This document shows positions 12,510 to 64,000 of a stretch of DNA of 64,000 nt, piece after piece. The number at the start of each line of letters is the position of its first letter. The first letter of the stretch is position 1. The DNA is from Bacillota bacterium (GTDB lineage: Bacteria; Bacillota; Halanaerobiia; B1SED10-174). Where the stretch lies: positions 6,170 through 70,169 of the forward strand of contig SKTZ01000014.1 of NCBI GenBank assembly GCA_007122335.1, in the 5' to 3' direction. Both the position numbers and the translations under genes were made by a program. The notes below the pieces were generated by a model, which was given only the letters and a program-made list of their open reading frames with translations, made no database searches and was not told the DNA's origin.

Positions 12510-12526
12510 ATGAAAGGTTTGCAGGC

Positions 12527-12555: not shown

Positions 12556-12626
12556 ATCCTTTGGACGACTCATCCTTTCCTAGCCCCGGAAAAGGAGAGT
12601 ATCCGTGAAGATTGGAGGTAAATCGA

Positions 12627-13076: not shown

Positions 13077-13079
13077 ACT

Positions 13080-13472: not shown

Positions 13473-13480
13473 AAACAACA

Positions 13481-13517
13481 ATCCTGGTCGTTTATGGCCA
13501 GGATTTTTATTTTTTTC
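13481..13517 (+). terminator. rho-independent terminator after rpsI
   Basis: Hairpin ATCCTGG-loop-CCAGGAT at 13481-13504 followed by TTTTTATTTTTTT. Confidence 0.8.
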
Positions 13518-13550
13518 ACGCAGGGAAAAGGACCGGGAATGTCAAAATTC

Positions 13551-13579
13551 TTGCATAAAGGAAAATAATTATTTAAAAG
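13551..13579 (+). promoter_or_regulatory. candidate promoter for the AmmeMemoRadiSam operon
   Basis: TTGCAT at 13551-13556, a 17-nt spacer, and TAAAAG at 13574-13579 (a weak -10). A GGGAGGG ribosome-binding site follows before ATG 13607. Confidence 0.4.
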
Positions 13580-13606
13580 GTAAAAAAAATCAGGGAGGGA
13601 AATAAA

Positions 13607-14941: not shown

Positions 14942-15012
14942 ATAATTTTTTCTATCTCAGGCAGGAAGATGAAAAAATTGAGGGAATATAATAATGTTGG
15001 GAGGAAAAATCC

Positions 15013-24343: not shown

Positions 24344-24344
24344 T

Positions 24345-24505
24345 CAAGCGCCTGGTCTTGGCTCAAGCCAAGTTGACGAGGTAGAGGTTTATCGAATTAT
24401 CGGCGGATGCCTCTAGGCCTGCTACCGGTCTTGAGCCAGTCTTTAAAACTTGCAAGTGATTGTAAGGCAAAGAGGCTGGTAGGTGGCTAAAGCAGTTGAA
24501 TGGAA
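24345..24505 (+). ncRNA. glmS leader: glmS ribozyme (GlcN6P-responsive self-cleaving riboswitch)
   Basis: Core sequence ...AAGCGCCUGG...GCUCAAGCCAAGUUGACGAGGUAGAGGUUUAUCGAAUUAUCGGCGGAUGCCUCU... matches the conserved glmS ribozyme core (GUUGACGAGG..UUAUCGAAUU.UCGGCGGAUGCCUCC). It lies directly upstream of glmS. Confidence 0.9.
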
Positions 24506-24517
24506 GGGGAGAAGTTA

Positions 24518-45865: not shown

Positions 45866-46774
45866 TTGAAAAGAAAAATTTTGTTTGTTCTTATACTTTT
45901 ATTCTTGTTTTCTGGTTTGGCCCAGGCCAATGGAGGAGTAACTTTTGGAGGAAGCAGGCTAGTTGCTCCCGGTGAAACTATCCGGGGGGATATAGTAATT
46001 TTTGGAGGAAGGGTTGAAATCCTGGGGACTCTTGAAGGAGACCTGGTCTGTATCGGGGGAAATGGTACTGTCGAAGGAAGAATAACCGGTGATCTGATAA
46101 GTGTTGGCAGCAGCCTTAACCTGGAAAGAGGTGCCAGCATTGGGGGAGACCTGGTTCAGGTTGGAGGGTCAATCTGGAGAGATCAGGAAGTTCAGATTGG
46201 GGGAATTTTTCGAACTGTAAGTTATATGGAGCCATTTCGGATAGGATTTCCGGGTTGGGTTTTTCGACCGGTAATATCCCTCTGGGGTTCTGTTTTAGGC
46301 TTTTTTTACCAGTTACTGTTTACCCTGCTTGTTGCCTTTTTATTTGCGAACAATGTAAAGGGAGTGGCTTCAACAATTAAAGGGGAGTGGGGATTATCTC
46401 TCCTGGTGGGCTTCCTTGGGTTTATTCTCCTGTTTCCAGTAGTAATTTTCCTTTTAATAACCATCCTTGGTATTCCCCTGGCTCTGGTGGTTTTACTCGG
46501 TTATTACCTCGCGGTTATTCTGGGCCAGGTAGGCATATTTTACATCCTGGGCGATTGGTTAATGGATAGATTTGGGCGGAAGCAGGATAAGGTGATTGGT
46601 ACTGCTGTAGTAGGACTGCTGGCAATATTTATTATCCGCCTGCTGATCAGAATAATCCCTTTTATTGGCGGACCTATCCACATGGTAATAATGGCTCTGA
46701 TTTACATGCTTGCTCTCGGAGTTACCCTTAAGAGCCGTTTTGGAACCAATAAACCCTGGATTGCCCGGGGTTAA
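45866..46774 (+). CDS. membrane protein with signal peptide, beta-helical (bactofilin/DUF4097-like) repeat domain and C-terminal 4-TM domain
   Basis: 302-aa ORF. After the signal peptide MKRKILFVLILLFLFSGLAQA there are repeating G-D-[LIV]-x-[IV]-x-G-G units (GDIVIFGGRVEILGTLEGDLVCIGGNGTVEGRITGDLISVGSSL...). The C-terminal half is hydrophobic. Confidence 0.55.
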   Translation: MKRKILFVLILLFLFSGLAQANGGVTFGGSRLVAPGETIRGDIVIFGGRVEILGTLEGDLVCIGGNGTVEGRITGDLISVGSSLNLERGASIGGDLVQVGGSIWRDQEVQIGGIFRTVSYMEPFRIGFPGWVFRPVISLWGSVLGFFYQLLFTLLVAFLFANNVKGVASTIKGEWGLSLLVGFLGFILLFPVVIFLLITILGIPLALVVLLGYYLAVILGQVGIFYILGDWLMDRFGRKQDKVIGTAVVGLLAIFIIRLLIRIIPFIGGPIHMVIMALIYMLALGVTLKSRFGTNKPWIARG

Positions 46775-46820: not shown

Positions 46821-46897
46821 TGGTCGGAGCGCCGGGATTTGAACCCGGGACCTCTGCCTCCCGAAGACAGCGCGCTTCCAAGCTGCGCTACGCTCCG
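46821..46897 (-). tRNA. trnP: tRNA-Pro (anticodon CGG)
   Basis: The reverse complement folds as a canonical cloverleaf. The parts are: acceptor CGGAGCG/CGCTCCG, D-arm GCGC-AGCTTGGAA-GCGC, anticodon arm CTGTC-TTCGGGA-GGCAG with anticodon CGG, T-arm CCGGG-TTCAAAT-CCCGG, discriminator A, and an encoded CCA. Confidence 0.9.
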
Positions 46898-46960: not shown

Positions 46961-49678
46961 ATGCTAAAAACATTTCTTTTTTCCCTGGTTTTGCTGGTTG
47001 TTTTTGTTCAGCCTGCCCAAGGTGCCATGTTTTTTAACTGGCAGCAAATAGACACCGAGAATTTCAGGGTTTATTTTCCTGCTGGCCTGGAAGAACAGGC
47101 CAATCAGGCTGCAGAAATTGCGGAAGAAGTTCATGTTGAACTTACGGAGTTTTTAAGCTACGAACCTAAGAAAAAGACCGATCTAATTTTATATGCCCAA
47201 AGGGATACTGCTGGAGGGTGGGCAGATATTTCCTGGGATCGCCGGATCGGGATTTATCTTGGGCATTTTAACCTTGAGGGTGGCTTCGGTGAATATGAAA
47301 GCATGCTCCGGTTAATTATTGCCCATGAATATGCCCATATTCTCCAGCTTTCCCTGCCCCCGGAAAATCTTTTGCCCTGGGGTTGGCTTTCCCAGATATT
47401 CCCTCCGATTTTATTGCAGCCTTACTGGTTTATTGAAGGTTTTGCTATGACCGTGGAAACAGACCTTACCGAAGGGGGTAGGGCTGATAGCCCGATTATT
47501 GGAGCAATGCTTAGAGCCCAGGCTGATGCTGATGAAATGTACCATTTTGACCAGATCCAGGGGTTGTACAACCTGGAGTCCTGGCCCGGGGCAATGGCCG
47601 CCTACAATTATGGAGCCTGGTTTATGGCCTACCTAATTGACGTATATGGCGAAAACCTAATAGTTGATCTGGCACGAAAATATCCGGAAAATCCTTTAAG
47701 GGGTATTTCCGGCTGGTTTAATTATCTGACCGGCGATAACCTGCAGGAGGTTTATCTTGAATGGCAGGATAAATTAGATTCAATTGGCAGAGTTGAGCAA
47801 CCCGAAACCATTACTTCTGCCTGGGGTTACAATCAAAACATTGCTACCTGCCCGCAAACAGACCGGGTATTGTATTTTCATCAGGGGGAGCTTTTTCCTT
47901 CCCTGAGGCTTTCTGATGGAGAAAAGGATGAACAGGTCCTTGCTGTTGCCGGGATTAATGGGGGTAGGCCCACATGGTCGCCTGATGGAGAAAAAATAGC
48001 CTTTGCCCGGCTGCGGCCGGAAGGCTTAAAGGAAATGTACCACCAGATTTTTATATTCGATTTAGACACCGGGGAACAAAAACAAGTAACCTCCGGTCGG
48101 GGCGGGAGGCATCCTGCCTGGTCTTCCCAGGGGGAATTGGCCTATGTAGAAAATTTAATGGGCGGGAACCAAATAGTACTCTACGATGTGGAAACCGGGC
48201 AGAAGGAAACCCTGTTTTTTAGCCGGCCCGAAATTGATTACGGATCGCTGGCCTGGGATCCCGCAGGTGAAAAACTTGCTATTGAGGTCTGGATAGAAGG
48301 GGGCGCAAGGGGGATTTGGATTTACGATACAAAAAGCGGCTACCTGGAAACTCTTTTTGCCCGGGAGGGAAATTTCCATCGGCCAGTCTGGTCGGCAAGT
48401 GGGTCCTTCCTTTATACAGTAGGCAGTATTGGAGGGCCTCCCCAAATATTTGCCTATAATTTGGAATCGGACAGGTTCTGGCAGGTCACATCCAATCCCT
48501 ATGGAACTTTTGATATTGGCCCGGGAATAGAAAAAGACTTCTTTGTAGTTTTAACTTCCCGGGGTTATCAGATTAAAGAGGAAAAAATTGGGTTAGAGGA
48601 ATGGCTTCCCAGACAACTAACCCGGTTTGTTCCCCGGGAAGATGAAGAGCTCAGGGAAATGAGGGAGGTGCGGAGGTCAAGTCGCAACTATCCCCTTTTC
48701 AGCAGATTAACACCCCGCCTGGTTATTCCCTGGTCAGGAGAAGGAGTTGTGGGGGTGAATATGTTTGGCTGGGATCCCCTGCAACTGGTTTACTATGAAG
48801 CCAGCATTGTTTCTGGTCTTCCCATTGCTCCCGCTTACAACATCTATACTGGTATTTATCCCGACCAGGGGAGGTTCGGTTTAATTGAAACCCTGCTGCA
48901 GGGTGGGTGGACTTCCCGGGTGGGTCCCGTTGAATACGAGAACCCCCGCCGGTTTGACGGGGGACAATTTCTCCTGCATATCCCGGTGCAGCGGGAATAT
49001 TTATCAGCCGGAACCCTGAGGCTGGGAGGGGGAGCATATTTCCTTCCTGACATGGTGTATCCAGGTGTTCACCTGGGTTGGACCCAGCAGTTTATCCGGG
49101 GCCAGGACAGGCTTAACGTAAATTTTGCCTACGCCCTTGATGGATCTACCTGGTATGTTGAAGGCTGGGATACTCAGTTGATCGGGCAGGGGCTAATGCG
49201 GATCAGCCCCTGGCGGGGAAGTAGCATTGGGTTATCCACTCTGGCCGGGGTAGCCCCCGGAGACTACCAGGTCAGCACCTCCATGAGGAGTTTTTCCGCT
49301 CCCCTGCAGGGGGAATTGATCTGGCTCAATCGGGTGGAATTTACCCAGCGGATCCTTGATATTAAAAGGGGAAGAGGGGAAATACCGATTTTTCTGGATA
49401 GTCTACAGGCCCGCCCCTATTTTGAAGCAGGTTCAGCCTGGGCAGGCGATATCCAGTTGAACAGGTACGGGGGAGGCCTGGAAGGAATTCTTGATGTAGA
49501 ACTGCTCCAGGGCCGGATCCCTCTTGAATTGGTTGGAGGCGTATCCTACAACACTGAGGAAAACCTGAGGGCCTACTTCCGCTTTAACCTGGGAGGTTTT
49601 GTCAGGACGATTGGTGAAAAGTACTTTTCTAGCCCCGTCGAGCAAGATAATTTAAAACCAGATAGAGACCAACAATAA
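46961..49678 (+). CDS. secreted multidomain protein: zincin-like metallopeptidase (HEYAH) + TolB-like beta-propeller + C-terminal Gly/aromatic-rich beta domain
   Basis: 905-aa ORF with signal peptide MLKTFLFSLVLLVVFVQPAQGA and an HExxH motif (IIAHEYAHILQ) plus a downstream E. Four or more PD40/TolB-type blades are present (PTWSPDGEKIAF, PAWSSQGELAYV, LAWDPAGEKLAI, PVWSASGSFLYTV). The C-terminal roughly 350 aa is beta-strand-like and Gly/Tyr/Trp-rich. Confidence 0.6.
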   Translation: MLKTFLFSLVLLVVFVQPAQGAMFFNWQQIDTENFRVYFPAGLEEQANQAAEIAEEVHVELTEFLSYEPKKKTDLILYAQRDTAGGWADISWDRRIGIYLGHFNLEGGFGEYESMLRLIIAHEYAHILQLSLPPENLLPWGWLSQIFPPILLQPYWFIEGFAMTVETDLTEGGRADSPIIGAMLRAQADADEMYHFDQIQGLYNLESWPGAMAAYNYGAWFMAYLIDVYGENLIVDLARKYPENPLRGISGWFNYLTGDNLQEVYLEWQDKLDSIGRVEQPETITSAWGYNQNIATCPQTDRVLYFHQGELFPSLRLSDGEKDEQVLAVAGINGGRPTWSPDGEKIAFARLRPEGLKEMYHQIFIFDLDTGEQKQVTSGRGGRHPAWSSQGELAYVENLMGGNQIVLYDVETGQKETLFFSRPEIDYGSLAWDPAGEKLAIEVWIEGGARGIWIYDTKSGYLETLFAREGNFHRPVWSASGSFLYTVGSIGGPPQIFAYNLESDRFWQVTSNPYGTFDIGPGIEKDFFVVLTSRGYQIKEEKIGLEEWLPRQLTRFVPREDEELREMREVRRSSRNYPLFSRLTPRLVIPWSGEGVVGVNMFGWDPLQLVYYEASIVSGLPIAPAYNIYTGIYPDQGRFGLIETLLQGGWTSRVGPVEYENPRRFDGGQFLLHIPVQREYLSAGTLRLGGGAYFLPDMVYPGVHLGWTQQFIRGQDRLNVNFAYALDGSTWYVEGWDTQLIGQGLMRISPWRGSSIGLSTLAGVAPGDYQVSTSMRSFSAPLQGELIWLNRVEFTQRILDIKRGRGEIPIFLDSLQARPYFEAGSAWAGDIQLNRYGGGLEGILDVELLQGRIPLELVGGVSYNTEENLRAYFRFNLGGFVRTIGEKYFSSPVEQDNLKPDRDQQ

Positions 49679-50246: not shown

Positions 50247-52400
50247 ATGAGTATACTGAAAAATTTAAACCCGCCACAAAAAAAAGCGGTTATCCATGGT
50301 GAAGGACCTTTATTGATTCTCGCTGGAGCTGGTAGCGGAAAAACCAGGGTTTTAACCCACCGTATTTCCTACCTGGTAGGGGAAAGGGGAATTTCTCCAA
50401 AAAACATAATGGGTGTTACCTTTACCAATAAAGCGGCGGAAGAAATGAAGAACAGGATCAGAAGATTAATTGGCCTGGGAACTGCTGATCTATGGATGGG
50501 AACCTTCCATGCTCTCTCGGTTCGAATCCTCCGCAGGGAGGCGGAAAGAGTCGGTTTTTCCAGCAACTTTGTAATATATGATACCCAGGAATCAAGGACC
50601 CTGATAAAAAACATAATGAAAAAAATTGGTTTGGACCCCAAGGAAATTAACCCGGCTGCTATCCAGCAGGAAATATCCCGCTTGAAAAGCGAACTAAAAG
50701 AACCCCACCAGATGGGCTCCACTGTTCACGATTTTTTCCGGGAAAATGTATACAAAGCTTACACCGAGTACCAAAAAGAACTCAAAAAAGCCAATGCCAT
50801 GGACTTTGATGACCTGATTATGATTACAGTAAAACTCCTTTTAGAGGAGCCAGAAATCCGTTCCCGTTACCAGTCCAGGTTTAGATATATCCTCGTTGAT
50901 GAGTACCAGGATGTTAATCATGCTCAGTACCGCTGGATTAACCTGCTCGCCGGTGACCAGGGCAACCTTACCGTAGTTGGAGATCCGGACCAGGGGATTT
51001 ATGGTTTCCGGGGGGCTGATATTAACAATATATTGAGCTTTGAAAAAGATTATCCCCGGGCCGAGGTTATTAAACTGGAAGAAAATTATCGTTCCTACCA
51101 GAATATTTTAAGCGGTGCACAGGGGGTAATTGCAGCGAATTCCCGCCGCAAGGAAAAAGATCTGTGGACAAGCAAGGGCAAAGGAAACCCCATAAACCTT
51201 CGGGAGTTTTACAACGGTGAAGAAGAAGCTGCCTTTATTGCCCAGGAGGTTCAGAATCTGCAGGAGAAGGATATCCTGGCCCGAGATATTGCTGTTTTTT
51301 ACCGGACCAACGCCCAGTCCCGGATCATAGAAACAGCCCTGACCCAGGCGGGAATCCCCTATAAAATAGTGGGGGGCATGAGGTTTTATGATCGGAAGGA
51401 AATTAAGGATCTTCTGGCCTACCTTAAGTTGATATATAACCGGGACGATACCATGAGTTTTTTGCGGGTGATTAACATGCCGCGCCGGGGCATCGGCCAG
51501 GCAACTATTGAAAAGGTGGAAAAAGAGGCCCTGCAGAGGGGAACGACTCTTTACAGGGTTTTAAGCCAGGTCGAGGAATTTTCCCTGGGCCCCCGGCAGC
51601 GAAAATCCCTGGCTGGTTTTTACAGGATGATTGAAGAATTGAGGAGTGAAGCTGAAAAACTGTTTCCTGGAGATCTATTGCAGGAAATCCTGGAAAGGAC
51701 AGGTTACTGGGCAGAACTTGCTGAAAGTGACAGCATTGAAGCCCAGGTCCGAATGGAAAATATCCAGGAGCTATTCAATGTATTGGAGGATATCCCCGAG
51801 GAAGGCTGGGAAGGTTTAGAAAACTTTCTTGCAGAAGTTTCACTGCTTTCCGACATTGACCTTTACGAGGAAGAACAGGGTGGTGTAACTTTAATGACCC
51901 TGCATACCGCCAAGGGTTTGGAATTCCCTGTTGTTTTTATGGTCGGCATGGAAGAGGGTTTTTGTCCACATAATAGGTCCATGGAAAATCCAGAAGAAAT
52001 AGAAGAAGAACGACGGTTATGCTATGTTGGTATGACCAGAGCCCAGGAAATATTATATATAACCTGGGCTCAGCAAAGGCAAATCTTTGGGACTAATGTT
52101 TTCCGGAAACCGTCCCAGTTTTTGCAGTGTATACCAGCGGAGAACTGTGCTGAAGTGGAAGAAGAGGAAAAGATTGATGATTTTCTTTCGGGAGAAAATA
52201 AAGGGGAAGAAAAAGAGGCCCCGGATGAGCCCCGGCACAACAATTTTGTTCTGGGACAGAAAGTTCGCCACCCCAAGTGGGGAGTGGGCCGGATTGTCAA
52301 CAAGACAGGAACGGGAAAGGATTTAAAACTTACTCTGGCTTTCGAGGGTCAGGGATTAAAAGAAATTTTAGTTGAATATGTAAACCTGGAAAAAATTTGA
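50247..52400 (+). CDS. pcrA: ATP-dependent DNA helicase PcrA (UvrD family)
   Basis: 717-aa ORF with the full SF1 motif set (AGAGSGKT, DEYQD, TLHTAKGLEF, VGMTRA). Confidence 0.93.
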   Translation: MSILKNLNPPQKKAVIHGEGPLLILAGAGSGKTRVLTHRISYLVGERGISPKNIMGVTFTNKAAEEMKNRIRRLIGLGTADLWMGTFHALSVRILRREAERVGFSSNFVIYDTQESRTLIKNIMKKIGLDPKEINPAAIQQEISRLKSELKEPHQMGSTVHDFFRENVYKAYTEYQKELKKANAMDFDDLIMITVKLLLEEPEIRSRYQSRFRYILVDEYQDVNHAQYRWINLLAGDQGNLTVVGDPDQGIYGFRGADINNILSFEKDYPRAEVIKLEENYRSYQNILSGAQGVIAANSRRKEKDLWTSKGKGNPINLREFYNGEEEAAFIAQEVQNLQEKDILARDIAVFYRTNAQSRIIETALTQAGIPYKIVGGMRFYDRKEIKDLLAYLKLIYNRDDTMSFLRVINMPRRGIGQATIEKVEKEALQRGTTLYRVLSQVEEFSLGPRQRKSLAGFYRMIEELRSEAEKLFPGDLLQEILERTGYWAELAESDSIEAQVRMENIQELFNVLEDIPEEGWEGLENFLAEVSLLSDIDLYEEEQGGVTLMTLHTAKGLEFPVVFMVGMEEGFCPHNRSMENPEEIEEERRLCYVGMTRAQEILYITWAQQRQIFGTNVFRKPSQFLQCIPAENCAEVEEEEKIDDFLSGENKGEEKEAPDEPRHNNFVLGQKVRHPKWGVGRIVNKTGTGKDLKLTLAFEGQGLKEILVEYVNLEKI

Positions 52401-52404
52401 CCGG

Positions 52405-52436
52405 GAGGGCAGCTTTATGCTGCCCTTTTCTTATTT
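52405..52436 (+). terminator. rho-independent terminator after pcrA
   Basis: GGGCAGC-TTTAT-GCTGCCC followed by TTTTCTTATTT. Confidence 0.85.
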
Positions 52437-52547
52437 CGAGAGTTTTTGGTGAAAGAAAGGAATCGGAAGTTTATCAGAAGAAATAAGAAGTTGAGGTAAA
52501 AATTATTCTCGCATGGTTTTTGTTTTTGTTAAAAGGGTTAAGAATAA

Positions 52548-54548
<2,001 letters not shown>

Positions 54549-54552
54549 AAAA

Positions 54553-54789
54553 GTGGAAAAAGAATTGGCCCGAATAACAGCCCTGGGAGAGGAAGATATC
54601 AAACTGGAATTACTCAGGAGTCAACTAGATGATATCAGGCTTTTTCTATCTCAAGGAGAAAAAGGGTTCGGGGAAGTTTTTAATTATAATTTCCTGACTT
54701 GGGAAAACCTCAGGGTTGATTGTCCCCAAGCAGAAGTAAGGGAAGCAGGAATAACCTTTAGGGTGGTTGAAATGCGGCAAAGGAGTTGA
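54553..54789 (+). CDS. gatC: Asp/Glu-tRNA amidotransferase subunit C (short)
   Basis: 78-aa ORF with a GTG start, immediately upstream of gatA. It shows GatC-like LxEE..(x)LDDI patterning (LGEEDIKLELLRSQLDDIRLF) and is shorter than the usual roughly 95 aa. Confidence 0.6.
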   Translation: MEKELARITALGEEDIKLELLRSQLDDIRLFLSQGEKGFGEVFNYNFLTWENLRVDCPQAEVREAGITFRVVEMRQRS

Positions 54790-56273
54790 GTTTTTTGAGC
54801 CTGGAAAATAAAAGCGCATCCTATATTTTCCACTTACTAAAAAAGGGAGGAATTTCCGCTCGTGAATTATTAAAAGATTGCAGGGAAAGGTTTAACGAGC
54901 GGGATCATAAACTTAATGCCTTCGTGGCAACCTCCTGGAAGCGGGCTGAAAAAAAAGCAAAAAAAATTGATGAAAAAAGGAAGGCGGGAGAGGAATTACC
55001 CCCTTTGAGCGGCATCCCCATTGCCATTAAGGATAATATGGCAAGGCGAAGGGATACAATGACCTGTTGTTCCAATTTTTTAGCCGATTTCTACCCGGGG
55101 TATTCTGCAACTGTGGTGGAAAAGCTGGAAAAGGCGGGAGCCGTAATAATAGGACGAACCAATATGGACGAAATGGCCATGGGTTCAACCACAGAAAAAT
55201 CAGCTTATTTCCCTACTCGAAATCCTCATGACCTGCATCGAGTTCCAGGAGGTTCATCAGGTGGTTCTGCTGCCGCAGTAGGTGGTGGAATTGTCCCGCT
55301 TGCCCTGGGCAGTGAGACGGGCGGTTCCATTCGCCAGCCAGCCTCTTTCTGCGGAGTTTATGGATTGCGGCCAACCTATGGAAGAGTTTCCCGTTTCGGG
55401 TTGGTTGCATATGCTTCTTCTTTAGACCAGATTGGGCCTTTTGCGGCTGACCTTGATGACCTCTGGTTGATTTTTTGCCACCTGGCAGGGAAAGATGAAC
55501 GGGACCAGACAACTTTTGCGGGCAAGGATCTAAAAAGAATGGGAGAAAATTTTGATCCCCCTGGTTTACGGGTAGCGCTGCCCCGAGAATACTTAGAAAA
55601 GGTTGAAGATGAGGAAATCAGCAAAAGATTGGAGCATGTTTGTGTTAGCCTGGAAAAAGCGGGGGTTAAAATTGAGGAAGTGTCTCTAATTGATCCCATC
55701 AGGGCTCTTGCAGTTTATTCTGTAATTGCAACTGCTGAAGCCAGCTCTAACCTGGCCCGTTTCGATGGGATTAGATTTGGACCTGAACCGGAAGGAGTCG
55801 ATAACTGGGAGGATTTTATAAAGAAAAGCCGGGCAGAGGGGTTTGGCGAGGAAGTGAAAAACAGGATTGCTCTGGGGGCCCTGGTTTTAAGTTCTGAGTA
55901 CCGGAAGGATTATTTTGACAGGGCCTTAATGGTCCGGGAGGAAATCCGCAAGGAACTGGAAGAACTGTGGCAAAGGTTTGATTTGATCCTGTCGCCGGCG
56001 ACCCCAACTCCTGCCTTCGAACTGGGGAGTGGTATGGAGATCTCTCTGCAGAAATATATGAGCGATATTCTTGCTATCCCCGCGAGTCTGGCGGGGATGC
56101 CTGCTATTTCATTACCTGCTGGGCTTAATGAAGACGGGTTGCCCCTGGGTTTGCAACTTATGGGACCCATGTGGTCAGAACCCCTGTTGATAGATTTTGC
56201 TGAATTTATTAAGCAAATAACGGGCTTTGGCGCCGAGGTTAAATTCAGGGCTGAAGGAGGTAGCGGATCATGA
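54786..56273 (+). CDS. gatA: Glu-tRNA(Gln) amidotransferase subunit A
   Basis: 495-aa amidase-signature enzyme (GGSSGGSAAAV, the Ser-cisSer-Lys triad region). Confidence 0.93.
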   Translation: MSFLSLENKSASYIFHLLKKGGISARELLKDCRERFNERDHKLNAFVATSWKRAEKKAKKIDEKRKAGEELPPLSGIPIAIKDNMARRRDTMTCCSNFLADFYPGYSATVVEKLEKAGAVIIGRTNMDEMAMGSTTEKSAYFPTRNPHDLHRVPGGSSGGSAAAVGGGIVPLALGSETGGSIRQPASFCGVYGLRPTYGRVSRFGLVAYASSLDQIGPFAADLDDLWLIFCHLAGKDERDQTTFAGKDLKRMGENFDPPGLRVALPREYLEKVEDEEISKRLEHVCVSLEKAGVKIEEVSLIDPIRALAVYSVIATAEASSNLARFDGIRFGPEPEGVDNWEDFIKKSRAEGFGEEVKNRIALGALVLSSEYRKDYFDRALMVREEIRKELEELWQRFDLILSPATPTPAFELGSGMEISLQKYMSDILAIPASLAGMPAISLPAGLNEDGLPLGLQLMGPMWSEPLLIDFAEFIKQITGFGAEVKFRAEGGSGS

Positions 56274-57679
56274 GCAGGGCTTTAGGGATGGTTGTGGGGC
56301 TGGAGATCCACCTGCAGTTAAAAACCAATTCCAAGATGTTTTGTTCCTGTTCAACAGAATTTGCTGCTCCTGCTAATACCAACACCTGCCCGATTTGCTT
56401 GGGCTGGCCGGGAACCCTGCCTTCTCTGAATCAGCGGGCTGTTTTTTTTGGCCTGCAGGGGGCTCTGGGGTTAAATTGCGATATTAACCTTGAGAGCTGG
56501 TTTGACCGGAAAAATTATTTTTACCCCGATTTACCTAAAGGTTATCAAATCACCCAGTACCAAAAACCTCTGGGCTATAATGGTACTTTCCGGGTGGGGA
56601 AAAAGGATTTTGCAATTCAGAAGGTTCACCTGGAAGAGGATGCAGGGAAAATAAATTACATTAATGGAAATATGGAAATCGATTTCAACAGGGCGGGTAT
56701 TCCCCTGCTGGAGATAGTTACTGAACCCGAAATAAGCAGTCCTGAACAGGCACGGAATTTTCTCCGCGAACTGCGGTTGTTTTTTCTGTACCTGGAGATA
56801 TCTGACTGCAATATGCAGGAAGGTTCTCTCCGCTGTGATGCCAATATATCCATGAGAAAGGTTGGAGAAGAATTATCTCCGAACCAGGTTGAATTAAAGA
56901 ATATGAATTCTTTCCAGGCCGTTGCTCGGGCTCTGGAGTATGAAGGAAAAAGACAGAGCAAAATCTTAAACGAGGGAGGATTAATAAAAAGAGAAACCCG
57001 AGGCTGGGATGGAGGAAAACAAAAAACATATTTCCTCCGCAGCAAGGAACAGGGTGTTGATTACCGTTATTTCTCAGAACCTGATCTTCCACCAGTTTTG
57101 CTAAAGCAAGAATTTGTTAATTCAGTTATGGGAAATTTACCCCGACAACCCGTTGAAAGACAGAAAAAATGGACCGAAGAGTGGGAAATTGGAGAAGAGG
57201 AAGCAGCAGTTCTAATTGCCCAAAAACCCCGGGCTGAATATTTTGAAAAAACTGCCTGCTTCGCTCCTCCTCAAGAAGTAGCAAAGTGGATTAAAGAAAA
57301 TCTTCTGCAATTTGATTTCCCCCTGGAAATACCACCAGAAGACCTGGCGGACATTATTAACCGGGTTGGAGTGGGAGAATTGAGCTCAACCAAGGGTAAG
57401 GAAGTTTTACAACTTGCCCTGGAAACCCGGAAAAAACCCGGAGAAATAATTCGAGAAAAAGGTTGGAAGCAGGTAAGCGACGAGGAATTTATTAAGCAAA
57501 TTGTTGAAAAGGTATTGCAGGAAAATCCTGAGGTTGTCCAGGATTACCTTTCCGGTAAGGAAAAGGCGATCCAGAATTTAATTGGGAAGGCCATGAAGAT
57601 CAGCGAGGGAAGGGCCAATCCCCGGCTTGTTGGAAACTTTCTGGCCAGCAAGTTAAAGGAGAGGGAGAACAATGGTTGA
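56270..57679 (+). CDS. gatB: Asp/Glu-tRNA amidotransferase subunit B
   Basis: 469-aa ORF (MVVGLEIHLQLKTNSKMFCSC...), a canonical GatB N-terminus, with a C-terminal YqeY-like domain. Confidence 0.93.
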   Translation: MSRALGMVVGLEIHLQLKTNSKMFCSCSTEFAAPANTNTCPICLGWPGTLPSLNQRAVFFGLQGALGLNCDINLESWFDRKNYFYPDLPKGYQITQYQKPLGYNGTFRVGKKDFAIQKVHLEEDAGKINYINGNMEIDFNRAGIPLLEIVTEPEISSPEQARNFLRELRLFFLYLEISDCNMQEGSLRCDANISMRKVGEELSPNQVELKNMNSFQAVARALEYEGKRQSKILNEGGLIKRETRGWDGGKQKTYFLRSKEQGVDYRYFSEPDLPPVLLKQEFVNSVMGNLPRQPVERQKKWTEEWEIGEEEAAVLIAQKPRAEYFEKTACFAPPQEVAKWIKENLLQFDFPLEIPPEDLADIINRVGVGELSSTKGKEVLQLALETRKKPGEIIREKGWKQVSDEEFIKQIVEKVLQENPEVVQDYLSGKEKAIQNLIGKAMKISEGRANPRLVGNFLASKLKERENNG

Positions 57680-58952
57680 AGAAATAATACCTGAATTGAA
57701 AATTAATGACCTGGGACATGATGGCCGGGGAGTTGGTAAGCTTAATGGCTATACCGTTTTTATACCTGGAACTCTACCCGGGGAGAGAGTCAGGGCCCGG
57801 CTTGTAAAAAAGAAAAAGCGTTTTGGAGAAGCCCTACTGGAAGAAGTTCTTGATGCATCACCCCACCGTAGAAAACCTCCCTGCCCTGTTTACTCCGAAT
57901 GCGGGGGGTGCCAACTGCAGCACATGGATTATTCTTTTCAGGTAGAATTTAAACAGGACCGATTGGTTCAGGCATTATACAGAATAGGTGAGGCTCAGGA
58001 TTTTCCTGCTCCCCGAATTCATGCTGCAGGAAAGGAATGGAATTACCGAAATAAAGCAACCTACCATCTTCAGGGAAGCCAGGTAGGTTTTTTCAGCCGC
58101 CAATCCCGCAGGGTAATTCCTCACGAGGAATGTGCTCTTTTGCCCCAGGAGGTCAACCAAATCAAAAAGAGCCTGGCAGATCTTTTAAAACAGAAGATTA
58201 TAACCTCGGGAAAAAATTTCACTGTAAGAACGAGTTTTTCCCATCAGCAGAGTCTCTTAATCCTCGACCAATCAGTAAAACCAGGGTCCTCCTGGGAGAA
58301 GGTTACAACTATTTTGCGGAAGGAAAACCCGGAACTTTTAGGGATCTATCAGCAGGGCAAGGGAAAAAGAGAGGGAAGAGGAATCTGGGGAAAGAGCATG
58401 ATTAAAGAAAAAATGGGTGATTATACTTTTGAGCTCGGACCGGCGACTTTTTTTCAGGTGAATTCGGAGCAGAGAGAAGTCCTTTTGGAGAGGGCGAAAA
58501 AAATTGTCCTGGACCTAAACTGTAGAAATATTGGCGACTTATACGCTGGTGCTGGTGTTTTCGGGATAAATCTGGCCAAACACGTTGACAGAGTTCTGGC
58601 AATCGAAATTTCGAGAGAGGCAGTAGCTGAAGGGAAAAGGAAGGCCCAGCATGCAGGACTTGATAATATTGAATTCCACAGAGGTGAGGTGGAAAGGGTT
58701 TTTGCTAAAATGCCCCGGGAATTGGATTGTGTTTTGCTTGATCCTCCCCGGGAAGGCTGCCACCCCAATTTGTGGCAGTTAATTGAAGAGAAAAAAGTAA
58801 AAAATATCGTTTATATTTCCTGTAACCCGGCCACCCTGGCCAGGGATATTGCTGAACTCCAACCCCTGGGCTACAGAATAGAGACCCTTGATCTTATTGA
58901 TATGTTCCCCCAGACTTATCACGTAGAATGTTTGGTACGACTATGTCGGTAA
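57672..58952 (+). CDS. rlmD: 23S rRNA (uracil-C5)-methyltransferase, RlmD/RumA family
   Basis: 426-aa ORF with an N-terminal TRAM domain, a 4-Cys cluster (C..C..CGGC), a SAM-MTase fold and the C-terminal catalytic Cys (ISCNP). Confidence 0.85.
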   Translation: MVEEIIPELKINDLGHDGRGVGKLNGYTVFIPGTLPGERVRARLVKKKKRFGEALLEEVLDASPHRRKPPCPVYSECGGCQLQHMDYSFQVEFKQDRLVQALYRIGEAQDFPAPRIHAAGKEWNYRNKATYHLQGSQVGFFSRQSRRVIPHEECALLPQEVNQIKKSLADLLKQKIITSGKNFTVRTSFSHQQSLLILDQSVKPGSSWEKVTTILRKENPELLGIYQQGKGKREGRGIWGKSMIKEKMGDYTFELGPATFFQVNSEQREVLLERAKKIVLDLNCRNIGDLYAGAGVFGINLAKHVDRVLAIEISREAVAEGKRKAQHAGLDNIEFHRGEVERVFAKMPRELDCVLLDPPREGCHPNLWQLIEEKKVKNIVYISCNPATLARDIAELQPLGYRIETLDLIDMFPQTYHVECLVRLCR

Positions 58953-59721
58953 AAATGCTTGTAATAATTGTGTTTTAGATGTTTTGCGGACTTTATACTT
59001 TTAGTAAGAATGAACAGAATTTCGAAAATAAATGGTTAATGGACAGCCTGAAAGTGAAAATAGGGTATGACCTCGTCTGCGGAGGTAGGTGTCTTTTTAA
59101 CAGTAATACTGGACCAACCATAATAAAAAAACCCACAGAACAAGGCTTGAGAGTAAATACCTGTTTGGTGGGAGCTCTTGGCTTCAAATTTACGGGGAGG
59201 AAATTTCAGGGCTCGTCCAAGATTTACTTACATATATAGAGCGAATAATATTTACGGAAAAGTGTGTTAATAAAGGGTTTATAGCCATCGGTTAGCAAGG
59301 GATAATAAACATAACTTCCAGCATGTCCGCTGTTTTATAATACTTATCAAAATTCCGGGCGGTAATTGGCCGGATATTATCATATTAAGCAACTGATTTG
59401 CCTTCTTTGGGTAGCCGGATGATAATGATGATTATTTAATAACATTTTCTGATACGCTATAGAATTCTATTGCATGTGAAAGAGCTGAGCGAACAATCAT
59501 AAGTCTTTCGTTAACATACCTGATGTAATTGTGATTTTTTGTTGTTATTTTAGAGGGATGGAGGGTAAAATGACTGATCGAAGAGGCAGGTAGGGAAGGG
59601 GTTAATCTAAATCAGTAATGGGTATATTTGTTAGGTAAAGAGACAGGAAAAGGGAGTAGAGTCTGGGTAAACAGAAAACCTTTAGAAGTTATGTAACTGA
59701 CCCTTTATCTATTTGAAGGGA

Positions 59722-60675
59722 CTACAGGGGTTTTCTTGGCTTTTTCAAGCATAGCTCAATTAGATCGCTGACGTTTGCTGTTCCCACACACATCACTTTG
59801 TCTGCCCCGCCCCAATAGATTTTTACTGTGCCATCTTTTTCAGGGACTGCCCCACAGGTAAACACCACATTATGCACATATCCGGTTAACTCCCAGGGGT
59901 CTTCAGGTTCAAGGATCCATTCATCAGCTACCCCGAGAATCCGCGATGGATCCCTCAGATCATGAAGCATTGCTCCAAGTCTGTAAACAGCTCCGTCCAT
60001 GGTGCGAAAGACCCCATGATAGATGTGCAGCCAGCCGCTATCGGTTCTGAAAGGGGTAGCTCCGGGGCCAATTTTCATTTCATCCCAATGGTAGGTTTCT
60101 GGTTTGACAATCAACTTTGAGTCTCCCCAGTGAATTAAATCGGGAGAATAGGAAATCCAGATGGACCAGGGGTTGATTTCCGTATGGGGACGATCCAGGC
60201 GGACATAACGTCCAGCAAACTTTTCTGGGAAAAGAACTACGTTACGCTGGTCTGCCTGTGTAATAAGAGAGATCCTTTCCACTGTTTCAAAATCCCGAGT
60301 TTTGGCTAAAGCAATCCTTACCCCGTGCTTGGAATAGGCACTGTATGTAATGAAGAAATCCTCATCTATTTTGCAGATTCTGGGGTCTTCAATACCATAT
60401 TTCTCATATTCAGCAAAAATGCTTTCTTGGGCCGGAGTCATAAAAGGCTTGGACTTGACCGCGAACCGGTAACCGTCTGAACTTTCTGCTATTCCCAGAA
60501 TAGAACGCCCGTTATGAAGATGTGACCGAAAAATCATCAAATAGCGCCCATCTGTCTTGATTACTCCAGCGTTGTGCACCGTAACTACCGGGTATGGCAC
60601 ATCGTTTTTGGTGAGGATGGGATTTTTTTTATATCTCTTAAGAATTGGTTCCCGTTTTTGCACAATTAACAACAT
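59722..60675 (-). CDS. glycoside hydrolase family 130 protein (beta-mannoside phosphorylase-like)
   Basis: 317-aa ORF with GH130/DUF377 hallmarks (EDPRI, YSAYS, WGGAD near the C-terminus, five-bladed propeller pattern). Confidence 0.8.
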   Translation of the reverse strand: MLLIVQKREPILKRYKKNPILTKNDVPYPVVTVHNAGVIKTDGRYLMIFRSHLHNGRSILGIAESSDGYRFAVKSKPFMTPAQESIFAEYEKYGIEDPRICKIDEDFFITYSAYSKHGVRIALAKTRDFETVERISLITQADQRNVVLFPEKFAGRYVRLDRPHTEINPWSIWISYSPDLIHWGDSKLIVKPETYHWDEMKIGPGATPFRTDSGWLHIYHGVFRTMDGAVYRLGAMLHDLRDPSRILGVADEWILEPEDPWELTGYVHNVVFTCGAVPEKDGTVKIYWGGADKVMCVGTANVSDLIELCLKKPRKPL

Positions 60676-60705
60676 CCTTCCGGTTTACTTAAACACTCGG
60701 CTCCA

Positions 60706-61719
60706 TTAAGTTTTTTCTATTATCCGCCGGTATACTGACAGATAATTTTCCACCATTTGATCTTGTGAGAATTTTTCTTCTACTACTCTCCTGCACTTAT
60801 GACGTGATATGGTTTTTATATTCCCTATTGCATCTACTGCAGAAGAAACATCGTTAACAAGAAAGCCGTTTTCGCCATCACTAATTAACTCCGGCATCGA
60901 GCCTTTGTTAAAAGCCACCACCGGTGTTCCACAGGCGTTGGCTTCCACAACAGACAAGCCGAAAGGCTCATTAAAATTGATTGAATGGATAAAACCAAGG
61001 GCACTCCCTAATAACTTATCTCTCAACTCGGGACCGACGGGACCTACAAACTTGACCTGGTCATCGTCAAGAAAAGGTTCAATTTGTTCTTTGAAATAAG
61101 CCTCATCCTGAATAATTCCGGCCATGATCAGCTTCATGCCCGCTTTACGGGCAATCTGAATTGCTTCACCGGCACCTTTATCGTGATGGATGCGCCCTAA
61201 GAAAAGCAGATAATCTTCAGGGGTTTCCTTAAACGTAAAGTTCTCAATATCGATACCATGATAAACAGTATCGATGTAGTTCAGTTCTGGTGAGCGATCG
61301 GCGTTGCTAATAGACACATAAAAAGTTGTGTCGTTATACTTCTTGTAAACGGGAATAATTTTCAAACTGGAAAAACCGTGGATAGTTGTTAGGACAGGCG
61401 TTTTTGTAAGACTTGAGTAGGTAAGTGGCAAAAAGTCGAAATGGTTATGGATTAGATCAAAATTTTCTGCCCTTTCAAATACCTCAGATATATGAAGACT
61501 CTCCCATACCTTGATATCAAAAGACCTGTCCTCCTCATAGGGGTGTGGCACTACAGCATGGAGCTTTCCCTTTGTGACTGAATCAGCTGTGGCAAACAAT
61601 GTAACATCTATCCCTCTCTTAACAAGCCCTTCTGTGATTAATGAAACTACCCGTTCCCACGGCCCATATTTCCGGGGCGGGGTCCTCCAGGCTATAGGAG
61701 AAAGCATGGCTATTTTCAT
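60706..61719 (-). CDS. glycosyltransferase family 4 (GT-B, retaining) protein
   Basis: 337-aa ORF with an N-terminal IAWRTPPRKYGPWERVV motif and a C-terminal E-x7-E region (EPFGLSVVEANACGTPVV) typical of GT4. Confidence 0.75.
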   Translation of the reverse strand: MKIAMLSPIAWRTPPRKYGPWERVVSLITEGLVKRGIDVTLFATADSVTKGKLHAVVPHPYEEDRSFDIKVWESLHISEVFERAENFDLIHNHFDFLPLTYSSLTKTPVLTTIHGFSSLKIIPVYKKYNDTTFYVSISNADRSPELNYIDTVYHGIDIENFTFKETPEDYLLFLGRIHHDKGAGEAIQIARKAGMKLIMAGIIQDEAYFKEQIEPFLDDDQVKFVGPVGPELRDKLLGSALGFIHSINFNEPFGLSVVEANACGTPVVAFNKGSMPELISDGENGFLVNDVSSAVDAIGNIKTISRHKCRRVVEEKFSQDQMVENYLSVYRRIIEKT

Positions 61720-61781
61720 TTAATATATTCCTCCTTCCTAGAAAAAAATTATGATTTCTCCCCTAAGGCAGAGGCCGCTTC

Positions 61782-64000
61782 TTATTTACCGCGGTAACGG
61801 GAGGGAATAAGCGTCGAAACACTGGCGGTAGCGACGCCGATTACTGTGTCTGCTCCGCCGTAATAAACCAGAATTTCATCGTCTTCATCCAAGACGTTTT
61901 TGTCAAGGAGGGGGACGGCACCGCAGGTGAAGACCACGTTTGGCACCCAGCTCTCTCCGGAAACGCCTATCTCGTAAGATGTATCCGGTTCCAGGATGGG
62001 ATTGGGAGAGCGGTAGATAAGCTTGGCCGGGTCATCTAAAGAGGTAAGGAAAACACCGAGCCGGTATCGCAACCCGTAGTCCACTCCATGGTAGATATGA
62101 AGCCAGCCGAAGCGGGTTTTCAAAGGCTGGGCACCTGCTCCGATCTTGATCGCATCCCACATCATTCCGGAACGTGAACCCATAATAATCTTGTGGCCTT
62201 CCCGGGGCCATGGGGTGTCGAAGGTGGGAGAGTAAGTTACCCAAATACTGGGAGCGATACGATGGTACATGGCTAACTTACCGTTAAATCTTTCCGGGAA
62301 TAAGACGGCATCCTTATTGGAAAAACCGGGAAAAACCAATCCGTGGCGGTGCCAGTGCTGCCAGCGCTGGTGGATTAGATCGTCCTCGGCGATAGATGCC
62401 AGGGCGATTTGAGGGGTAACTCCGTCGTAGGCGGTGTAAAGCATGTAGATGCGGCCTTCGATAGCGATAAGGCGGGGGTCTTCGCAGCCCATTTTTTCAC
62501 TTTCATGGGCGGGAGCGAAAACCGGTTCGGGCAGCCGTTCGTCCACGCGCAGACCGTTTTTGCTTAAAGCCAGGCCAATACGGGAAATGCCGTCCTCACC
62601 AACAGCCCGGTAGAAGATGTGAACATCCCCATTGACACGAATGGCGCCGCAGTTTAAAACATATTTAGACTCCCAATTACTATCTGCGATTGGGGTTAGG
62701 ATAGGATTGAAATCGGAACGAACCAGTTTGCCCGCGGGAGGTAGTTCTTTGTCCATATTCTGTTCAACAATAACAGCCGCCCTGTCGGAATGGGCTCCAA
62801 GGAGCATCACGGCCAGGTCTTCATTTTCTTTACCTTGTCCCATCAGTTCAGCGATTTTTGGAAAAATGTTTTCGCGTTTTCCTCCCACTTGCTCATAGCA
62901 GCGGTAAAAAAGTTCGGCACTGAACCATCTCCGCTCTACCATGAGGGAAAGGGGGGAAGGTATGCCTTTGCCGCCTTTAAAGCTGTAACTGGCCCAACTC
63001 CACAGGGAGCAGGTGACAAAATGGCCATCAGGAAGGGTTATACCTAAGTGGTATACTGAGGCCATTAGTGCAAGGCGTTTGCGGAACCTTACCGTGTCCG
63101 GGTCTGCAGAGCCCCAGTCCTGATTGGTAATTTCCAGAAGTTTGTCTCTAAGGGTTTGCTGCTGAAGGTTTTCAAAAATACTGTGGGCAGAAAACATGTG
63201 ATAACCCGAGTGCCCTTCAATGGAATTTACCACCTTTTGGCCGAAGTCTTTGCCTGAATTGTTTTTAAAGGATTCCCAGATGACGCCGAACTGCTGTGCG
63301 TCGATGATGTTTTTTAAAATTATGGTCAGGAAACGAGCCTTGGGGAAACTACCGCCGCTCTCCTTACGGAGATAACTGATGACGACACGGCTGGTGAGAT
63401 GGTTCAGGGATGAAGATTCCCGCATGCCTGCTAAGGCGGGGAAATCTAGATAACTGACGAATAAAGGGCGGATGGGGGACAGTTCAAAATGTTCCGGTCG
63501 CAGGTTTTCGCGCAGCCACTCGTTGTTCCAGGCACTGTACCGAGCGGGCTCGGACCAGGTGGAGAGGGCTAGAACATCCAAAGGATTGTGGTTGGCCAGG
63601 AGTTCATCGGTATTGCGGTAACCCCAAAGGGTAATAAGGTTGCGGGGCGGTTGTTTCCGCAGCAGCCGTTCCGCAACTTCTTCTTTCAGAGAGAAGCTGA
63701 TAGGGGTGGGATAGAGATTAAAAATCCTTTCTGCCACCTGTTGAATGCCTGAGCTGGTGTGTAAGTCACCAGGCAAAAGGATAGTGTCCAAACCTTTTTC
63801 TACTTCTTCCATCAGTTCTTTGATGGCCTGGCCTAGCTTTTCAAAGCCGTCCTGGGGAGAAAGGTCTAACTGACGGCGGGCGAAGCCTTCAAACCCTTCT
63901 TTGTATTCTTTCAGCAGTTGTTCGTAGATTTCTGATACCCGGGCGGTTTTGCCTGAGGCTGAACGGACTGTGTGGGGCAGTATGATGGGAACGCCGGGGA
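61782..64000 (-). CDS. large fusion protein: unknown N-terminal domain (at least 490 aa) + C-terminal GH130 domain; 5' end beyond window
   Basis: The ORF track lists 61782-63812, but the same frame stays open (62 more sense codons, no stop) to the window edge, so the true start is upstream of 64000. The C-terminal roughly 300 aa is clearly GH130 (EDPRLIA, YTAYDG, YYGGADTV). The N-terminal region has no family recognised by inspection. Confidence 0.7.
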   Translation of the reverse strand, partial: PGVPIILPHTVRSASGKTARVSEIYEQLLKEYKEGFEGFARRQLDLSPQDGFEKLGQAIKELMEEVEKGLDTILLPGDLHTSSGIQQVAERIFNLYPTPISFSLKEEVAERLLRKQPPRNLITLWGYRNTDELLANHNPLDVLALSTWSEPARYSAWNNEWLRENLRPEHFELSPIRPLFVSYLDFPALAGMRESSSLNHLTSRVVISYLRKESGGSFPKARFLTIILKNIIDAQQFGVIWESFKNNSGKDFGQKVVNSIEGHSGYHMFSAHSIFENLQQQTLRDKLLEITNQDWGSADPDTVRFRKRLALMASVYHLGITLPDGHFVTCSLWSWASYSFKGGKGIPSPLSLMVERRWFSAELFYRCYEQVGGKRENIFPKIAELMGQGKENEDLAVMLLGAHSDRAAVIVEQNMDKELPPAGKLVRSDFNPILTPIADSNWESKYVLNCGAIRVNGDVHIFYRAVGEDGISRIGLALSKNGLRVDERLPEPVFAPAHESEKMGCEDPRLIAIEGRIYMLYTAYDGVTPQIALASIAEDDLIHQRWQHWHRHGLVFPGFSNKDAVLFPERFNGKLAMYHRIAPSIWVTYSPTFDTPWPREGHKIIMGSRSGMMWDAIKIGAGAQPLKTRFGWLHIYHGVDYGLRYRLGVFLTSLDDPAKLIYRSPNPILEPDTSYEIGVSGESWVPNVVFTCGAVPLLDKNVLDEDDEILVYYGGADTVIGVATASVSTLIPSRYRGK

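Follow-up and report, generated by a model that had tools for sequence, protein, structure and literature searches.

GH130 phosphorylases, GT4 glycosyltransferases and a Thermoanaerobacter cluster that combines GH130, ManC and GT4 genes are already known. More than 99% of GH130 proteins are single-module, the phosphate-dependent members are cytoplasmic enzymes, and CAZy carries a few modular 'GH130-GT81' sequences that are listed only and uncharacterised (PMC7660257). In Leishmania a cytosolic beta-1,2-mannan, mannogen, is made from GDP-mannose or mannose-1-phosphate (mannose-1-P) and is phosphorolysed; its GT108 MTPs are five-bladed propellers with a GH130-like active site and have bacterial relatives such as AsGT (PMC10913872, citing Sernee et al. 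2019). Here we describe a glycan locus at the end of a 64,000-nt stretch of a Bacillota bacterium assembly (GCA_007122335.1, contig SKTZ01000014.1, positions 6,170 to 70,169 of the forward strand; hereafter, the window). Its three genes appear to be the downstream end of a conserved, transporter-less cytoplasmic operon that may run a cycle of soluble mannoside synthesis and phosphorolysis, a reading whose chances we judge to be about even. What sets the locus apart is a beta-1,2-type GH130 domain fused to a nucleotide-sugar-transferase fold and tied to a whole GDP-mannose pathway and two retaining GT4s, with no uptake system. The features of the window on which the analysis is based are as follows.

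58953..59721, no strand: AT-rich non-coding spacer of 769 nt, between a convergent TRAM/U5-methyltransferase gene and the standalone GH130 gene.
59722..60675, minus strand: standalone GH130 gene, 317 aa (Pfam PF04041); predicted cytoplasmic beta-mannoside phosphorylase with the E/R (beta-1,3-type) +1-subsite signature.
60706..61719, minus strand: small GT4 gene, 337 aa (Pfam PF00534 and PF13439); predicted retaining enzyme of the TeGSS type, acting on soluble acceptors.
61782..64000, minus strand: 3′ two-thirds of the large gene (codons 458-1195 and stop); the frame is open to the window edge, and the first 457 codons (GT-A) lie beyond it.
61785..62729, minus strand: GH130 domain of the large protein, residues 881-1195, assigned from matches to PDB 9fj8/7fip and from diagnostic residues; predicted beta-1,2-type with a short L2 loop.
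62775..63992, minus strand: middle domain of the large protein, residues ~460-865, about 400 aa and mostly helical, without a recognisable family or fold.

An earlier note on this DNA, made from the letters alone, had described three co-directional minus-strand genes behind an AT-rich spacer of about 770 nt. All three open reading frames (ORFs) are present where the note had placed them, and the spacer has a GC content of 0.36–0.38, compared with 0.43–0.53 in the genes. Within the 769 nt, an Rfam scan gave no match at E<=1, a repeat scan found no repeat family and nothing beyond a 12-nt palindrome, and terminator-like sites were no more frequent than in shuffled sequence. The gaps between the three glycan genes are 62 and 30 nt, an operon-like spacing. 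As the note had also stated, the part of the locus inside the window contains no transporter or regulator.

The frame of the large gene, which ends at 61782, is open up to base 63998, with 738 codons in the window; the ORF list gives it as a complete 676-aa ORF (61782-63812, ATG at 63812), and the protein is mis-sized if that entry is relied on. An exact-protein look-up of the small GT4 led to a contig of a soda-lake metagenome-assembled genome (GCA_007126785.1, SLAQ01000069.1; hereafter L001) from sediment sample SL_3KL_010_SED. We took L001 as a valid extension because it differs from the last 12 kb of the window at only 12 positions (99.9% identity; window 64000 corresponds to L001 7720). 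The full gene spans L001:6351-9938 and encodes 1195 aa, of which 880 lie N-terminal to GH130. The single unrecognised N-terminal domain of about 490 aa or more proposed in the earlier note is thus about 423 aa inside the window and 880 aa in full, and consists of a decayed GT-A domain followed by a separate, novel domain of about 400 aa. Past base 64000, where the note had envisaged either GDP-mannose synthesis genes or ordinary mannan-utilisation genes, L001 holds no mannan-utilisation genes and two genes transcribed divergently from the large one: a second GT4 of 758 aa, then a 1057-aa fusion of mannose-6-phosphate isomerase, mannose-1-P guanylyltransferase and phosphomannomutase (PMI/GMP/PMM). 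The fusion scores 541 bits for TIGR01479 (mannose-1-P guanylyltransferase/mannose-6-P isomerase; curated cut-off 373), and a PGM/PMM domain follows; it is a GDP-mannose-making enzyme. In a hydropathy scan of all four proteins, no 19-residue window had a mean Kyte-Doolittle value above 1.6, and thus no membrane segment was found. A role in phage defence was rejected, as PADLOC gave no match for any of the four. The intergenic region between the divergent 758-aa GT4 and 1195-aa genes (L001 5315-6350) is 1036 nt long, which is unusual for a promoter region; it holds only short ORFs, and an Rfam scan of this stretch of about 1 kb returned no real match.

We assessed both GH130 enzymes with the residue rule in Table 2 of PMC7660257 (proton donor D104; phosphate-binding R168 and H231; +1 subsite R59, Y/E103, R/K150 and D304), which uses Uhgb_MP numbering and was applied through alignments to solved structures. 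At the end of the open frame of the large gene, the C-terminal GH130 domain recognised in the earlier note scores 175.5 bits in Pfam against a cut-off of 26 (E 1.7e-51, fragment residues 445-730). Its closest PDB entries are 9fj8 (Teth514_1788; 1e-57, residues 424-726) and 7fip (Teth514_1789; 4.5e-54). The residue set is D964, R1037, H1094, R921, E963, K1019 and D1174, carried by the motifs FYRAV (R921), CEDPR (E963-D964, window 62472-62486), SNKDA (K1019), YHRIA (R1037), IYHGV (H1094) and GGADT (D1174), with D964 aligned to the EDPR motif of Teth514_1788. These residues are invariant or nearly so in 26 homologues, and D964, R1037 and H1094 are invariant. With the Arg/His pair in place, no signal peptide and a non-hydrophobic N-terminus, the fused protein groups with phosphorylases and not with hydrolases. 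Its +1-subsite pair, E963 and K1019 (NKD), is of the beta-1,2 type (GH130_4/_6-like), and the domain is predicted to be a beta-1,2-type mannoside phosphorylase. The L2 loop after R1037 has the same length as in Teth514_1788, whose loop class accepts GDP-mannose (PMC12814180). Both the long GH130_4 lid loop and an equivalent of the Teth514_1789 Trp (W120) that blocks subsite +3 are missing, which would be compatible with longer chains.

The second GH130 of 317 aa, also called correctly in the earlier note, matches Pfam Glyco_hydro_130 with 197.8 bits (cut-off 26, E 2.9e-58) and is closest in the PDB to TM1225/1vkd (2.2e-57). D97, R162 and H220 align with TM1225, as in a genuine member of the family. 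They are joined by R50, E96, R144 and D292, in the motifs IFRSH (R50), IEDPR (E96-D97, window 60379-60393), DQRNV (R144-N145), RLDRP (R162), IYHGV (H220) and GGADK (D292). The E96 and R144 pair in the +1 subsite is of the beta-1,3 type (meta-nodes C5/UC7), so that the Table 2 rule predicts a beta-1,3-type phosphorylase. Compared with Teth514_1788, the L2 loop has five extra residues, and no hydrophobic segment was found. Loss of the catalytic Asp and the phosphate-binding residues, which the earlier note had raised as a possibility, was seen in neither enzyme, and the +1-subsite residues are likewise kept in both. Neither reaches an NCBIfam equivalog cut-off; for NF052550 (beta-1,2-mannobiose phosphorylase; cut-off 450) the fused GH130 scores 246.9 bits and the standalone enzyme 214.1. 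Orthologues of the standalone enzyme, 72–89% identical, adjoin a small GT4 in loci L006, L008, L031, L051 and L053.

The gene between them had been read as a GT4, and both GT-B Pfam models pass their cut-offs (PF00534, Glycos_transf_1, 86.5 bits; PF13439, Glyco_transf_4, 40.1 bits). The E-x7-E motif is E251...E259 (EPFGLSVVE, window 60955-60969). This small GT4 aligns end to end (residues 1-335; E 3e-81, 276 bits) with glucosylsucrose synthase, TeGSS (PDB 7fg9/8x3q), a soluble retaining GT4 that uses UDP-glucose as donor and a disaccharide as acceptor (PMC9909042). Homologues 65–87% identical occur across Bacillota, Desulfomonile-type bacteria and Eisenbacteria, and many carry a C-terminal mannose-6-P-isomerase-type cupin (PF01050), a fusion that ties the family to mannose metabolism. 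Because the genomic context is mannose-related, a TeGSS function for the small GT4 appears doubtful. The C-terminal domain of the 758-aa GT4 is linked by profile to YPO2471 (7tem, 3e-15) and weakly to GH76 alpha-mannanases, cellobiose 2-epimerase, C5-epimerase, GH127 and GH88; based on these links, we assign it to an (alpha/alpha)6-type glycan-acting fold.

The large protein consists of three parts: an N-terminal GT-A domain resembling MGS (mannosylglycerate synthase) and GpgS (glucosyl-3-phosphoglycerate synthase), the middle domain, and GH130. We found 63 homologues, nearly all of 1180–1240 aa, and all but two fragments have a GH130 Pfam match. An assembly artefact was rejected as the source of the fusion, since an ORF of about 1190 aa is intact in dozens of independent assemblies and split only in locus L052. 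L052 and L051 have the same called genes (both 11512-15041), with the large gene split into 591 and 611 aa in L052 and present as an intact 1200-aa ORF in L051; the split is probably a frameshift or assembly error.

The N-terminal 880 residues gave no Pfam match and no PDB sequence match. In a Foldseek search of the PDB with an AlphaFold model of residues 1-880 (pLDDT 82), the part from ~1 to 445 superposed on the whole of MGS 2y4m, GT-A and helical domain included (E 8e-9, target-normalised TM 0.74, 13% identity), followed by glucosyl-3-phosphoglycerate synthase, mannosyl-3-phosphoglycerate synthase (MPGS) and GtrB-type GT-A enzymes. As modelled, the domain would have the GT-A fold and C-terminal helical domain that mark GT78 and GT81; the DxD and other motifs of active relatives are absent. 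A profile search of 1.84 billion representatives placed it in a large family of standalone proteins of about 400–440 aa that give sub-threshold GpgS matches and are in some cases fused to HAD phosphatases. In the window protein, D[SA]D of the active relatives has become DPN (EPx, KSQ or SAN in other members), RQPIGG[DE] has become RGFPHAGM, K-x-H has become KPE, and YNxxxT after strand 1 has become LSINKDT. R104 is the only invariant polar residue of the domain across the fusion family. We therefore dropped an active mannosylglycerate-synthase-like N-terminus for this clade, as the catalytic motifs that standalone relatives keep are lost. Judging from these motifs, the domain in this clade is probably a pseudo-glycosyltransferase, with scaffolding or binding as its most likely role. 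Some deeper-branching fusion members keep E-A-D or D-A-D, which suggests that the ancestral fusion may have been active. GT-A domains of the same family, with DxD kept, also occur in the giant multidomain proteins P0234 (3487 aa), P0238 (1807 aa) and P0287 (2720 aa). Immediately after the GT-A domain, P0234 and P0238 have a HAD phosphatase, and P0234 also has methyltransferase and GlnD-like nucleotidyltransferase domains; these GT-A/HAD pairs look like fused two-step glycoside-phosphate pathways.

Invariant motifs are denser in the middle domain, which is modelled with pLDDT mostly 80–95 and is mostly helical, than elsewhere in the N-terminal part; they are PPxNL (63636-63650), GGxFPKxR (63333-63359), FSAHxxFE (63168-63194) and WSWASYSxKGG (62979-63002; longer form WSWASYSxKGG..P.PL....E). 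Neither Pfam nor the PDB, searched with phmmer and with a profile, yielded a match, and the top 50 Foldseek entries from the PDB contain none for this domain. A duplication relating it to the (alpha/alpha)6 domain of the neighbouring GT4 was considered and rejected (hhalign probability 0.1). The domain is also found joined to GH130 without GT-A and in a GH130-GH130-middle arrangement, and in a sister architecture (proteins P0191 and P0208) the GT-A and middle module is fused to a TreT-like trehalose-synthase GT4 in place of GH130. Based on these fusions to GH130 or a TreT-like GT4, the middle domain appears to accompany reversible enzymes that form soluble glycosides, and may supply a binding or catalytic function.

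A scan with one genome per species gave 45 loci, and neighbours were counted in the 24 with adequate flanks. The hosts are Dethiobacter/Dethiobacteria, Anoxynatronum (two cultured species), Halanaerobiales, Syntrophomonas (including S. zehnderi OL-4), Thermovenabulum, Sumerlaeota, Desulfovibrionaceae and Dehalococcoidales. Near the large gene, a GT4 of the 758-aa type is found in 22 of the 24 loci, ManC in 18/24 and PMM in 14/24; the small GT4 is present in only 6/24 and the standalone GH130 in 2/24. The conserved core is therefore the large protein and the 758-aa GT4, with the small GT4 and standalone GH130 accessory. When all neighbouring ORFs from 48 loci were clustered, only the GH130/fusion, GT4 and ManC/PMM families occurred in more than 7 loci, and the next clusters were unrelated housekeeping genes (peptidase M3, metallo-beta-lactamase, PcrB, radical SAM, sensor kinase, topoisomerase). 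No transporter, binding protein or secreted glycosidase recurs within +/-10 kb in the 48 loci, and none is present in L004/L005 or L051/L053. The linked transporter and secreted endo-mannanase or glycosidase of a mannan locus of the polysaccharide-utilisation-locus or ABC type were likewise found neither in the window nor in L001, and do not recur in the 48 loci. In a Peptococcaceae contig all parts stand in a row (ManC, PMI, small GT4, GH130, big GT4 and a 1200-aa protein). L053, which has no fusion, keeps a similar set: big GT4, another GT4, an E/K-type GH130, a small GT4-cupin fusion and an E/R-type GH130. A 7.3-kb contig binned as 'Thermoplasmata archaeon' (L006, JAUSPR010000152.1) carries the large gene, small GT4 and standalone GH130 at 80%, 86% and 89% identity, in the gene order of the window; mis-binning of a bacterial contig is the most likely explanation, and a recent transfer a less likely one.

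The cycle that we propose would begin with the PMI/GMP/PMM fusion, which would convert fructose-6-P to mannose-1-P and GDP-mannose. The retaining GT4s (the 758-aa GT4-(alpha/alpha)6 protein and, in this clade, also the small GT4) would add alpha-linked sugars to a soluble acceptor, either as a primer or as decoration. The fused GH130 would then add beta-1,2-mannose, with mannose-1-P (reverse phosphorolysis) or GDP-mannose (a side activity documented for this type) as donor. Given phosphate, the same domain could cleave the chain back to mannose-1-P and conserve the bond energy, and the standalone GH130 would act likewise on a beta-1,3-type linkage. The end product would be a soluble oligo- or polysaccharide containing mannose, for use as a reserve or a solute. 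We infer the sugars, the direction of flux and the product from the gene set; relatives of the component parts (MGS, GpgS, TeGSS and TreT) all make soluble glycosides. An endogenous cycle is favoured because GDP-mannose genes, not mannan-utilisation genes, lie past the window edge and because no transporter or secreted glycosidase recurs.

The earlier note had suggested such a cycle rather than simple catabolism. The GDP-mannose genes, the lack of an uptake set and the intact phosphorylases agree with that view; the details depart from it in that the two GH130s differ in linkage signature and that the small GT4 is nearest to a glucosyltransferase. Several further considerations weigh against the cycle. 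It is drawn from sequence and genomic context, not biochemistry, and in living cells phosphorylases normally work as degradative enzymes. The GT-A domain appears inactive and so adds no transferase step, and we know of no candidate product from any host organism. GDP-mannose transfer by GH130s is weak, and those who discovered it allow that it may be a curiosity (PMC12814180). For the small GT4, the closest enzyme that has been characterised takes UDP-glucose as donor and not GDP-mannose (PMC9909042), and the closest characterised cluster, that of Thermoanaerobacter, has been interpreted as salvage of an imported mannoside (PMC4264767).

That last interpretation, carried over to the present locus, is in our judgement unlikely. 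Imported beta-mannosides would be phosphorolysed to mannose-1-P, and ManC would convert this to GDP-mannose for glycosylation by GT4s, as proposed for Thermoanaerobacter sp. X-514. The cluster of that organism likewise pairs two beta-1,2 GH130s with a mannose-1-P guanylyltransferase and a GT4 (PMC4264767), the fused GH130 is most similar to the Thermoanaerobacter enzymes, and the usual role of phosphorylases is catabolic. However, the Thermoanaerobacter cluster includes five ABC-transporter genes and a GH5, and in the present loci the means of uptake do not recur in the flanks surveyed above. In addition, the PMI and PMM of the operon give mannose-1-P de novo from fructose-6-P, which salvage does not need.

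The locus might instead make a small glycoside solute, a di- to tetrasaccharide or a glycosyl-glycerate-type compound and not a polymer, that is produced under salt or heat stress and phosphorolysed on down-shock. We consider this quite improbable, although several observations fit it. The DNA comes from soda-lake sediment, and there are many haloalkaliphiles among the carriers (Dethiobacter, Anoxynatronum, Halanaerobiales); MGS, GpgS and MPGS, which the GT-A domain resembles in fold, are all enzymes of compatible-solute synthesis; fusions of standalone relatives to HAD phosphatases recall two-step solute pathways; and the sister architecture has a TreT-like trehalose synthase in place of GH130. 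Among characterised enzymes, the small GT4 is closest to one whose product, glucosylsucrose, builds up in cyanobacteria under salt stress (PMC9909042). Set against these are carriers that are not halophiles and come from digesters and the subsurface (Syntrophomonas, Thermovenabulum, Sumerlaeota), the loss of GT-A catalytic motifs in this clade, and a fused GH130 that lacks the lid loop and W120 block which hold relatives to a degree of polymerisation of 2–3 and so fits longer chains (PMC12814180).

A bolder version of the proposed cycle is a long shot. Anaerobic bacteria would possess a mannogen-like cytosolic beta-mannan reserve, with the 1195-aa protein as a self-contained synthase/phosphorylase, the middle domain as a new catalytic fold, and GDP-mannose transfer by GH130 as physiological synthesis. 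By analogy with the cyclase of cyclic-glucan synthase, the middle domain could in that case be a transglycosylase, branching or chain-length-setting module. Very unlikely, finally, is a mannose-containing surface glycan (S-layer glycan, secondary wall polymer or glycolipid) on which the GH130s act as beta-mannosyltransferases or trimmers: GDP-mannose genes with GT4s are typical of surface-glycan loci, NCBIfam gives weak matches to exopolysaccharide and lipopolysaccharide GT4 families, and GH130s of this type can use GDP-mannose (PMC12814180), but those matches are far under cut-offs, all four proteins are without membrane segments, the neighbours of the large gene in the 48 loci include no recurrent polyprenyl-phosphate transferase, flippase, polymerase or exporter, and phosphate-dependent GH130s are cytoplasmic (PMC7660257).

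Other features of the window lie outside the glycan locus. A glmS ribozyme/riboswitch (24336-24490, plus strand; 101 bits, E 1.8e-22) is located directly upstream of a 613-aa ORF (24500-26341), the usual arrangement in Bacillota. The only tRNA is tRNA-Pro (CGG) at 46821-46897 on the minus strand, flanked by ORFs 45866-46774 and 46961-49678, both on the plus strand. A plus-strand housekeeping block (50247-58952) extends up to the AT-rich spacer and converges on the glycan genes; based on Pfam assignments taken from the 99.9%-identical L001, it encodes a UvrD/PcrA helicase, an NAD-dependent DNA ligase, a 78-aa ORF without a Pfam match, an amidase-family GatA-type gene, gatB and a TRAM/U5 RNA methyltransferase.

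GH130 phosphorylases have been treated almost wholly as catabolic single-module enzymes, and the locus is a natural test case for that view. The authors who reported GH130 GDP-mannose transferase activity could not say if it matters in cells (PMC12814180); whether such synthesis is physiological becomes testable here, as three of the approximately 45 anaerobic carrier species are cultured, namely Anoxynatronum buryatiense, A. sibiricum and Syntrophomonas zehnderi. If the proposed cycle holds, the locus would stand for either a bacterial equivalent of the mannogen reserve in Leishmania or a new kind of mannoside osmolyte. It would also give a function to a conserved 400-residue domain of unknown fold and provide new enzymes for beta-mannosides, which are hard to synthesise chemically.

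Cgs, the cyclic beta-1,2-glucan synthase, is a single polypeptide in which a transferase is followed by a middle cyclase and then a C-terminal GH94 phosphorylase. The large protein resembles it in layout only, by analogy, with a nucleotide-sugar-transferase fold, a middle domain and a C-terminal, presumptively inverting beta-1,2 phosphorylase; there is no sequence relation and no credible fold relation (Foldseek 8rf9 and 8rf0, probability 0.38–0.47, TM 0.13–0.17). Cgs is also membrane-bound and of the glucose type, whereas the large protein is soluble, has a decayed GT domain and is predicted to handle a mannose-type sugar. With MGS (GT78, R. marinus; 2bo4, 2y4m) and GpgS (GT81; 3e26) the GT-A domain shares its fold at 12–13% identity, without a Pfam MGS_GT or GT2 match. 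The GH130-GT81 sequences in CAZy show the same domain pair, a GT81-like GT-A with GH130, and very likely belong to the same family as the large protein; PMC7660257, which mentions them, makes no mention of a middle domain of about 400 aa, decay of the GT-A motifs or a conserved operon. In the literature we found no description of the middle domain, the GT-A decay, the pairing of beta-1,2 and beta-1,3 GH130s, the GT4-(alpha/alpha)6 partner or the transporter-less operon.

The small GT4 is like TeGSS/alr1000 (PMC9909042) in size, solubility and the E-x7-E motif. The partner of TeGSS is a sucrose-phosphate synthase, whereas the small GT4 is accompanied by GH130s and mannose-pathway genes and has close homologues with a PMI-type cupin. 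The mannogen cycle may share with the proposed one its working principle of build-up and phosphorolysis. Its GT108 MTPs differ from the enzymes described here, which score as GH130s (Pfam PF04041) and are bacterial, multidomain and accompanied by retaining GT4s. The Thermoanaerobacter sp. X-514 cluster (Teth514_1785-1796, with the GH130_6 enzymes Teth514_1788/1789; PMC4264767) has in common with this locus two GH130s, a mannose-1-P guanylyltransferase and a GT4, and the proteins of both are without signal peptides. Teth514_1788/1789 and the fused GH130 further share the D/R/H/R/E/K/D residue set and the short L2 loop. The present locus differs from that cluster in lacking the ABC transporter and GH5 and in having its beta-1,2 GH130 fused to 880 extra residues; it adds a GT4 with an (alpha/alpha)6 domain, a PMI and a PMM, and its second GH130 is predicted to be of the beta-1,3 type and not a second beta-1,2 enzyme.

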